A DNA stretch of 34,875 bases from a virus (taxonomy: Duplodnaviria > Heunggongvirae > Uroviricota > Caudoviricetes), in IMG/VR virus record IMGVR_UViG_2917413769_000004. The stretch is one strand, 5' to 3'. The notes under the pieces were generated by a model that saw nothing but the letters and a program-made list of their open reading frames with translations, ran no database searches and was not told where the DNA came from. This document shows, one piece after another, positions 26,005 through 26,423 of the stretch (position 1 is its first letter; each line of letters starts with the position of its first letter). A program made the position numbers and the translations under genes.

Positions 26005-26382
26005 TTATCGAAAAAAAACAGCCTGACATGCTGATTTAGATATTTTCACTTCGTGGGCATTATTTGATATGAACAAATAACAATTATGACCAGAGGCTAT
26101 GTAGTCACTTGGAATATTATTTTCGTCTTTAATATGAAACTGCACCGTTGTCACCGGGCGTTCGCTATCCTCGGATACTTCGATTTTTTCAAAACTGTCC
26201 GCGTACTTATCCAAGCCGGGGAGTTGTTGGCGAATAAACGGTAATTCGCGATTTACAACCGGATTATCTGTTTCAACGCTAAAAACCGCGTGCTCCTTAG
26301 CTGTGGTTGACGTATCAGCAGGTTCGGTATTATCTCCACACCCAGATAAAACAAATATCAACGGTAAAAATAATTTGCGCAT
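26005..26382 (-). CDS. Lipoprotein, AT-rich gene downstream of and probably co-transcribed with the repressor
   Basis: MRKLFLPLIFVLSGC lipobox signal peptide; markedly lower GC than the surrounding phage; starts about 40 nt after the repressor stop on the same strand. Confidence 0.7.
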   Translation of the reverse strand: MRKLFLPLIFVLSGCGDNTEPADTSTTAKEHAVFSVETDNPVVNRELPFIRQQLPGLDKYADSFEKIEVSEDSERPVTTVQFHIKDENNIPSDYIASGHNCYLFISNNAHEVKISKSACQAVFFR

Positions 26383-26423
26383 AGTCATGTCCTTATACCT
26401 CTAATGTTCTTAATAGGAACAGA

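Follow-up and report, generated by a model that had tools for sequence, protein, structure and literature searches.

A repressor-linked lipoprotein gene, probably truncated by one extra T, in a BcepMu-like Escherichia prophage and its possible role at the cell envelope

Prophage genes that are co-expressed with the repressor supply many functions in phage exclusion and host conversion. The lipoprotein Ltp of the Streptococcus thermophilus phage TP-J34 belongs to the lysogeny module, is expressed in the lysogen and keeps superinfecting phage out by stopping the injection of DNA at the membrane, while Cor (phi80, N15 and HK022) and Llp (T5) are small enterobacterial phage lipoproteins that prevent superinfection by inactivating the outer-membrane receptor FhuA. 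In phage lambda, the prophage lipoprotein Bor is made in lysogens, and rexAB are accessory genes co-transcribed with the repressor. Here we describe a lipoprotein gene situated directly behind the repressor gene of a BcepMu-like (Mu-type) transposable prophage of Escherichia sp. E1130, which fills almost the whole of the 34,875-nucleotide (nt) stretch analysed (IMG/VR record IMGVR_UViG_2917413769_000004, hereafter the window). The best overall explanation of the data, to which we assign a probability of about 0.45, is that this gene encodes a lipoprotein of the repressor unit with a protective role at the envelope, and that its copy in the window is truncated by a single additional T.

As judged from the sequence, the gene resembles the systems above in concept and appears to belong to none of them. 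Tests for homology were negative: no sequence or fold similarity was found to Bor/Iss, TraT, Cor, Llp and Ltp, the known lipoproteins of exclusion or conversion. Ltp is the closest analogue for the proposed way of working, although its host is Gram-positive and its phage a siphovirus; since no significant sequence or fold match was obtained in the PDB, membership in the Ltp group is unsupported. Cor and Llp differ in being shorter and in being encoded outside the repressor unit, and show no family or fold match to the lipoprotein studied here. RexAB work by abortive infection and the Rex proteins are not lipoproteins, and there is no Pfam match that would link our protein to Bor. A literature search likewise returned no paper on this lipoprotein, nor on any lipoprotein following the repressor in BcepMu-like phages. 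The gene is best filed as a lysogeny-unit prophage lipoprotein from an uncharacterised family, of which the window holds a broken or mis-sequenced copy.

That the gene encodes a lipoprotein and that its copy in the window is truncated is the firmest part of this explanation, and we regard both points as highly probable. The reading frame is lost at a homopolymer that is T8 in the gene (Table 1), and past the truncated stop the other frame reads on as ...DKTDVPGGDLTVKLDKEKVPMTDDGKTPRAGCLKAYSPEPDNDYWTCPRQD*. Klebsiella phage KP12 (clone KP12_2) and Escherichia phage Phi06_2974B both have T7 at this site and a gene of 534 base pairs or 177 amino acids (aa), in a region that is 98% identical to the window, and all four substitutions relative to KP12 that fall within the out-of-frame stretch 25854..26004 are synonymous in the restored frame. 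Every one of the 20 complete E. coli genomes with the locus annotates an intact gene; T7 is present in 19 of these (640 of 641 query bases match), and the 20th, at 91% identity and with 637 bases matching, is intact by annotation, its tract being unread. The close IMG/VR loci are also all intact (12 of 12), and one IMG/VR contig (3300045988_130087, L013) is identical to the window gene minus one T at 534 of 534 positions. In an exact-pattern census, T7 was found in six of six IMG/VR copies and in eight of nine metagenome contigs, the ninth being T6. Among 15 close alleles the ratio of nonsynonymous to synonymous polymorphism (pN/pS) amounts to 0.18 ahead of the shift (codons 1-126) and to 0.19 behind it (codons 127-177); with a similar ratio on either side, the tail is coding sequence under selection. 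From the intact T7 alleles and the purifying selection on the tail it follows that the gene proper runs from 26388 (or 26382) to 25854.

Table 1. Position of the lipoprotein gene and of associated features in the window.
Feature	Position	Strand	Remarks
Homopolymer A8/T8, frameshift site	26011..26018		A8 on the plus strand; T7 in relatives; no other mononucleotide run in the window reaches 8
Lipoprotein gene, full length	25854..26388	-	177 codons after deletion of one T; broken here by a +1 frameshift after codon 126
C-terminal 51 codons, out of frame here	25854..26004	-	Four predicted beta-strands and the Cys158-Cys173 pair
Open reading frame as read in the window	26005..26388	-	127 aa; ATG start; ends ...ACQAVFFR*
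Signal peptide and lipobox (MTMRKLFLPLIFVLSG-C)	26338..26388	-	Codon of Cys17 (to be lipidated) at 26340-26338
Spacer, repressor stop to lipoprotein start	26389..26423	-	35 nt; AAGGA ribosome-binding site; TGTTC-N7-GAACA palindrome; no terminator
Repressor, HTH_3 / Phage_CI_repr	26424..26834	-	136 aa; upstream gene of the unit; counterpart of BcepMu gp17
GC-rich hairpin, lipoprotein and Dam genes converging on it	25820..25847		Likely end of the repressor-lipoprotein unit
Near-consensus sigma-70-like early promoter (TTGACA-16-TACAAT)	26851..26878	+	Serves the divergent ner-like/transposase operon

It is possible, at well below even odds, that the extra T was introduced during sequencing or assembly of the homopolymer and that the real gene of Escherichia sp. 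E1130 is intact, with T7 and 177 aa. Such an error would account for the otherwise identical T7 allele of L013, for the truncated product being recorded on a single contig and for the lack of any nonsynonymous change downstream of the shift, and the T6 variant of the census, being on a metagenome contig of 1.1x coverage, points the same way. Shifted database entries nevertheless recur on several allele backbones and on up to six contigs, T8 on a different backbone from that of the window (P0191) and T6 on three (P0189, P0196 and P0198), and A/T runs are also hot spots for slippage in both replication and transcription, where an A8 run can give about a tenth of full-length product (PMC1088944). 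P0195 has a frameshift of its own, in an A5 run further downstream. The variants with T6 and T8 in the databases may be either real slippage mutations or sequencing errors. Since the open reading frame (ORF) is the frameshift-truncated form of the gene, the copy in the window is probably either non-functional or mis-sequenced; a protein that lacks about 32% of its mature chain is probably inactive, and slippage on T8 might still yield a trickle of full-length product from it.

The length of the tract is not constant. Two intact IMG/VR alleles (L018 and L020) have an in-frame T8, in which TTC is changed to TTT and the change is synonymous, and in L023 and other lineages the run is interrupted (TTTTTCTC); tract length is thus not conserved across the family. 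These variants bear on whether the T-run could be a contingency (phase-variation) or recoding site that toggles or tunes the full-length against the truncated protein. In that case one would point to the occurrence of T6, T7 and T8 on different backbones, to the in-frame T8 alleles, to the transcriptional slippage reported for A8 runs and to the fact that a +1 shift on UUU-UUC of the T8 allele recreates exactly ...AVFFDKT.... We consider such a switch very unlikely, with the great majority of copies being T7 (all 35 with a tract that was read, compared to some 12 contigs with a shift from the metagenome and protein look-ups), with the run interrupted in other lineages, and with seven or eight bases being short for efficient switching (PMC1088944). 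In two further database entries (P0021 and P0193) the sequence diverges abruptly into unrelated sequence past codon 118 (...KISK/EGANKSYG... and ...KISK/EVAIKW...), which suggests an insertion or a junction within the gene in other assemblies.

The N-terminal end of the protein is that of a canonical signal peptidase II substrate (MRKLFLPLIFVLSG followed by the Cys), with a positive n-region (M(TM)RK), a hydrophobic h-region (LFLPLIFV) and LSG-C17 as the lipobox, the consensus being [LVI][ASTVI][GAS]C. The lipobox Cys is invariant across 23 aligned relatives, and of 40 IMG/VR homologues 37 carry a strict lipobox and a further two LFGC or LMGC, so that the lipobox signal peptide named in the first-pass annotation is borne out. 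After the Cys, the protein has Gly at +2 and Asp at +3 (CGDN), while long-form relatives have Asp at +2 (CDS, CDG). The second ATG (26382) is the better placed start, with the AAGGA ribosome-binding site (26394-26390) located 7 nt before it, and it is also the start chosen by the Prokaryotic Genome Annotation Pipeline (PGAP) in the E. coli orthologue, giving 175 aa rather than the 177 aa counted from the first ATG. The corresponding truncated form of 125 aa is on record as WP_240782956.1 of Escherichia sp. E1130, on one contig; no database record was found for the 127-aa product that starts at the first ATG. For annotation, this means that Escherichia sp. E1130 has no distinct short protein here: its 'hypothetical protein' of 125/127 aa stems either from a pseudogene with a frameshift or from an error in sequencing.

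Structure prediction, which the first-pass annotation had proposed, gave a confident AlphaFold2 (AF2) model of the protein, with a predicted local distance difference test score (pLDDT) of 83 overall and above 90 in the core, and this model has no significant fold match in the PDB or BFVD. It comprises a disordered linker up to residue 31, two helices, and a beta-sheet with one further helix. The family form of 175-177 aa consists of a signal peptide, a flexible linker of about 25 residues and a compact alpha/beta domain, in which Cys103 and Cys121 are conserved, followed at the C-terminus by the Cys158...Cys173 loop. According to the model, the truncation deletes strands 136-139, 142-146, 159-161 and 170-174 together with Cys158 and Cys173, about 32% of the mature chain. 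Naturally shorter forms of 146-147 aa do exist in Citrobacter and Serratia/Klebsiella prophages; in these, strands 136-146 are still there and the Cys loop alone is missing.

It is against this model that the ORF has to be weighed if it is taken at face value, as a complete and functional 127-aa lipoprotein moron with a hairpin of its own that blocks a receptor or DNA entry. The ORF, its lipobox and its position are all real, and the 146-147-aa forms demonstrate that shorter members occur in nature; yet these retain strands 136-146, which the 127-aa form does not, the near-identical relatives are all 175-177 aa long, and the C-terminal part is under purifying selection. The hairpin is no help either, starting 157 nt past the 127-aa stop and only 6 nt past the full-length stop, and no structure was detected directly after the truncated stop (z = +1.2). 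We hold a complete 127-aa lipoprotein to be highly improbable.

The hairpin itself (25820-25847) is the only stable one nearby, with a folding energy of -19.2 kcal/mol and a z-score of -3.65, none of 200 shuffled sequences folding equally well. It belongs to the full-length gene. At the other end, the spacer behind the repressor is unstructured (z = 0.3), and a scan for sigma-70-like promoters between repressor and lipoprotein found none; the distance from the repressor stop (26424) is 41 nt when counted to the second ATG. This layout makes it likely that the lipoprotein gene is the second gene of the repressor operon, in which case it would be co-transcribed with the repressor in the lysogen, the transcript ending at the hairpin past the full-length stop.

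Most of what the first-pass annotation had said about the transcription unit can be kept in amended form. The spacing of about 40 nt on the same strand behind the repressor stop is correct. A stable hairpin does follow the gene; it abuts the full-length stop and not the ORF stop that had been assumed, and it has no clean U-tract. Placement on the lysogenic repressor transcript agrees with the layout, that is, with the conserved gene order and with a spacer that has no terminator, structure or promoter, while the promoter of the repressor was not found. The gene had further been called the only strongly AT-rich one: with a guanine + cytosine (GC) content of 39.8% in the ORF (39.8-41.5% as a range) it is indeed the lowest of 41 ORFs in a window of 55.7%, but it is not alone, as the repressor gene has 43.6% and three ORFs of the tail-fibre region 46-48%. 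With the repressor nearly as AT-rich, repressor and lipoprotein form one low-GC block. The description as a moron fits the deviant GC content and the cassette-like divergence reported below; it fits less well with the lack of a detectable promoter of its own and with the presence of a family gene in every relative examined.

Two further sites were noticed in this region. The spacer contains the perfect palindrome TGTTC-N7-GAACA (26405-26421), whose core GTTC-N7-GAAC is kept in the Morganella, Serratia/Klebsiella and E. fergusonii elements despite divergent flanks. As a repeated operator it was rejected, one occurrence in the window being no more than chance, and as a terminator its stem is too short; it may be a protein-binding or RNA-processing site. 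A promoter-like site on the minus strand (TTGAAA-18-GATAAT, 10 of 12 matches, 25884-25913) lies inside the out-of-frame C-terminal part and faces the hairpin and, beyond it, the 3' end of Dam; it is probably due to chance.

Regarding the family, scans of the repaired protein against Pfam, NCBIfam and PADLOC gave no usable match, and with no Pfam match at all there is also none to Lambda_Bor or TraT, as far as the library holds them. The sole family match is to phrog_10002 (E = 1.1e-13), in which residues 27-134 align with profile positions 215-321 of 328. This is a match at domain level, as the N-terminal two-thirds of the profile are absent from the lipoprotein. The close homologues form 37 clusters, all from Enterobacterales, and none has a name other than 'hypothetical protein'. 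Among 1.8 billion representatives, a profile search picked out 186 clusters, 72 of them at E <= 1e-10 and most of 130-160 aa, which share the core ...P.IR..(C)PGLDKY... IP..Y.A.GH.C...I.....I.K..C.S.(C)LD. In a Pfam scan of 62 distant members only Zn-ribbons were recognised, and these lie in N-terminal extensions; the profile search against PDB sequences found nothing, and tblastn with the lipoprotein and its fused relative (see below) against 50,697 phage records found KP12 and Phi06_2974B only. Taken together, these results describe an uncharacterised, fast-varying family that, going by its predicted features, probably acts in the cell envelope of the lysogen.

The match to phrog_10002 connects the lipoprotein with a group of inner-membrane proteins. 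Its core matches the C-terminal part of phrog_10002, and both are encoded beside the repressor of BcepMu-like phages; the difference is that phrog_10002 is a transmembrane (TM)-anchored protein of about 324 aa with a cytoplasmic N-domain (phrog_5825), whereas the protein studied here is a free lipoprotein with an extra C-terminal Cys loop. In distant BcepMu-like phages, the gene directly upstream of the lipoprotein encodes a phrog_5825 membrane protein with its cytoplasmic N-domain, a multi-TM protein or a Zn-ribbon-TM protein, and the helix-turn-helix (HTH) repressor stands one gene further up. A fused version also exists, in which the phrog_5825 N-domain, a TM helix and the lipoprotein-family domain are joined in one protein of 324 aa (phrog_10002, E = 7.8e-148). 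In BcepMu itself, the same slot after the repressor gp17 of a collinear genome is taken by gp18 (phrog_6521 'membrane protein'; L060, 4640-5422), which overlaps the repressor stop and carries the phrog_5825 N-domain (E = 1.7e-8). Like the lipoprotein, gp18 belongs to the envelope, and its periplasmic tail contains Cys; unlike the lipoprotein, gp18 is a TM protein with a cytoplasmic N-domain and no lipoprotein, and its tail is unrelated to the lipoprotein domain. Both gp18 and gp19 were tried as homologues of the lipoprotein and rejected, gp18 with an hhalign probability below 1%. Outside this phage group, a P2-like prophage has a Zn-ribbon-TM-domain homologue 14 nt past an HTH_3 repressor, and another homologue is found within a P2-like late region. 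From these fused and adjacent TM and repressor contexts it can be seen that the domain has repeatedly been recruited beside repressors, often at the periplasmic face of the inner membrane.

Repressor-adjacent membrane proteins with a common cytoplasmic N-domain (phrog_5825, phrog_6521 and phrog_10002) were noted in L025 and L026 (2870-3844), in upstream ORFs of L035, L041 and L052, and in BcepMu gp18. L025 and L026 have both a fused and a free lipoprotein copy, and the N-domain faintly resembles an anti-repressor PHROG (E = 4.6e-4).

These arrangements invite a reading in which the lipoprotein is the periplasmic sensing or partner half of a repressor-linked TM module that reports envelope events to the cytoplasm, for instance for induction tuning or abortive infection, and of which only the periplasmic half survives here. 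The architecture of phrog_10002 and the position of phrog_5825 proteins just upstream of the lipoprotein supply the fusion link, the gp18 N-domain occupies the same position in BcepMu, Zn-ribbon-TM-domain forms exist, and the faint anti-repressor match would suit such a module. The last of these is a marginal similarity, however, and no partner of this kind separates repressor and lipoprotein in the phage of the window or in its close relatives. A sensing role is accordingly judged unlikely.

A second line of evidence comes from conservation around the gene. The order of repressor, spacer of 22-41 nt and lipoprotein is kept in prophages of Morganella (L004), Serratia/Klebsiella (L007), E. fergusonii (L011) and Citrobacter (L081), and in each a distinct GC hairpin lies directly past the lipoprotein stop, those of L004, L007 and L011 being non-homologous. 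In 33 of the 40 IMG/VR loci, an ORF on the same strand ends no more than 41 nt upstream. None of the relatives examined lacks a family gene at this position, the variation being by allele only; all these loci were retrieved via the lipoprotein itself, and the constant presence of the gene is therefore not demonstrated.

The lipoprotein stands out by its divergence. Relative to the Morganella element (L004), the identities are 87.5% for the repressor, 92% for the ner-like protein, 94% for the transposase, 90% for Dam and 46.5% for the lipoprotein, which is by far the most divergent. In the Serratia/Klebsiella element (L007) the corresponding values are 51%, 97%, 97%, 91% and 49%, and the remaining genes are 86-98% identical. 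At the DNA level, identity with the Morganella element falls from 85-95% to 37-62% over the interval from about 26330 to about 25750. This takes in the mature lipoprotein, the hairpin and the final Dam codons, whereas the region of the signal peptide and linker remains similar. The identity profile and the divergent lipoprotein indicate a cassette that is exchanged independently of immunity type, and the mature part of the lipoprotein would be the portion that is rapidly exchanged. Low GC content and cassette-like divergence are consistent with what one would expect of an accessory gene expressed in lysogeny.

Such an exported lipoprotein in a lysogeny unit might instead be a factor of lysogenic conversion that serves the host, much like lambda Bor, for example through serum or complement resistance, envelope robustness or adhesion, and the range of gut, clinical, insect- and plant-associated hosts would suit this. 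The protein does not match Pfam, hence neither Lambda_Bor nor TraT as held there, and the rate of allele swapping, which is independent of host genus, is a better fit for conflict between phages; we think a host benefit of this kind quite unlikely.

The working model that we prefer, a repressor-unit lipoprotein with a protective role at the envelope, can then be outlined as follows. On the strength of its anatomy and of the conserved synteny, the full-length protein would be exported, lipidated and active on the periplasmic side of the envelope. There it may protect the lysogen by blocking tail penetration or DNA entry in the periplasm, which is the weakest step of the model. A periplasmic block is preferred over masking of an outer-membrane receptor because the domain is tethered to the inner membrane in related phages. 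Assignment of the protein to envelope-level superinfection exclusion is for these reasons put forward tentatively.

Several observations weigh against the model. The T8 may, as discussed, be an assembly error, with the allele on a single contig and the T6 variant on a contig of low coverage. The hairpin has no clean U-tract and failed the terminator scan, and no promoter passed the scan for the repressor unit. The Gly at +2 leaves the predicted sorting to the inner or the outer membrane unsettled, at least one distant homologue is found in a context unlike phage, and the hypervariability could be neutral cassette swapping.

A wider proposition would be that the lipoprotein represents a new, structurally unmatched periplasmic prophage family that is wired to the repressor in at least two temperate-phage types (BcepMu-like and P2-like), in free or inner-membrane-tethered form, and that acts as an envelope-level exclusion or envelope-sensing system with a swapped specificity cassette. 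This proposition is doubtful as it stands. Were it true, the slippery T-run could give occasional on/off variants. Its appeal lies in a compact, well-folded and disulfide-containing predicted periplasmic domain that belongs to no curated family, has no solved structural relative and is encoded beside the repressor in two temperate-phage types; it could define a new exclusion family in prophages of E. coli, Salmonella, Klebsiella and Citrobacter.

The assignment of the element as BcepMu-like is based on its gene content and order. The plus-strand arm encodes the ner-like protein, an IclR-type HTH protein, DUF3102, a DDE transposase and an ExeA-like ATPase ... GemA and Mor, the minus-strand arm encodes a holin, an SLT lysin, a Mu-type head and a P2-type tail, and the repressor region is central; the Dam-type methylase gene is convergent with the lipoprotein gene. 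Collinearity with BcepMu extends over gp9-gp29, with gp16, the gp17 repressor, gp18, gp19, gp20, the gp21 holin and gp22 SLT in the same order, and the match to TIGR04111 (BcepMu_gp16) is sub-threshold, at 28.9 against a curated cut-off of 34 bits. In E. coli CFS3292 (L003, 28957-30103), the prophage ends just past Mor and abuts a 5'-truncated gadC pseudogene, as expected for transposition, which means that the element disrupted the acid-resistance antiporter gene there.

At the left end of the window, a serine invertase gene (Resolvase N-domain, 1-429, minus strand) is cut by the window edge, and next to it lie opposed tail-fibre assembly genes (774-1214, plus strand, and 1186-1617, minus strand) and a tail-fibre gene (1614-2456, minus strand). 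Positions 1-2456 look like an invertible host-range switch of the Mu G-segment type, a region that BcepMu does not have according to the KS10 paper (PMC2628397). Between Dam and the holin, a DUF2441 gene (phrog_5663, 24226-24792, minus strand) is present in the window and in L020, L030, L032, L040 and L081, and is missing from E. coli CFS3292 and most relatives; it is a true presence/absence moron. Finally, the KP12 clone KP12_2 record (L001, OM835952.1) is filed as Vequintavirinae, while its sequence is a 34.9-kilobase BcepMu-like one with transposase, holin and SLT lysin, and it is likely a mislabelled, co-purified induced prophage.

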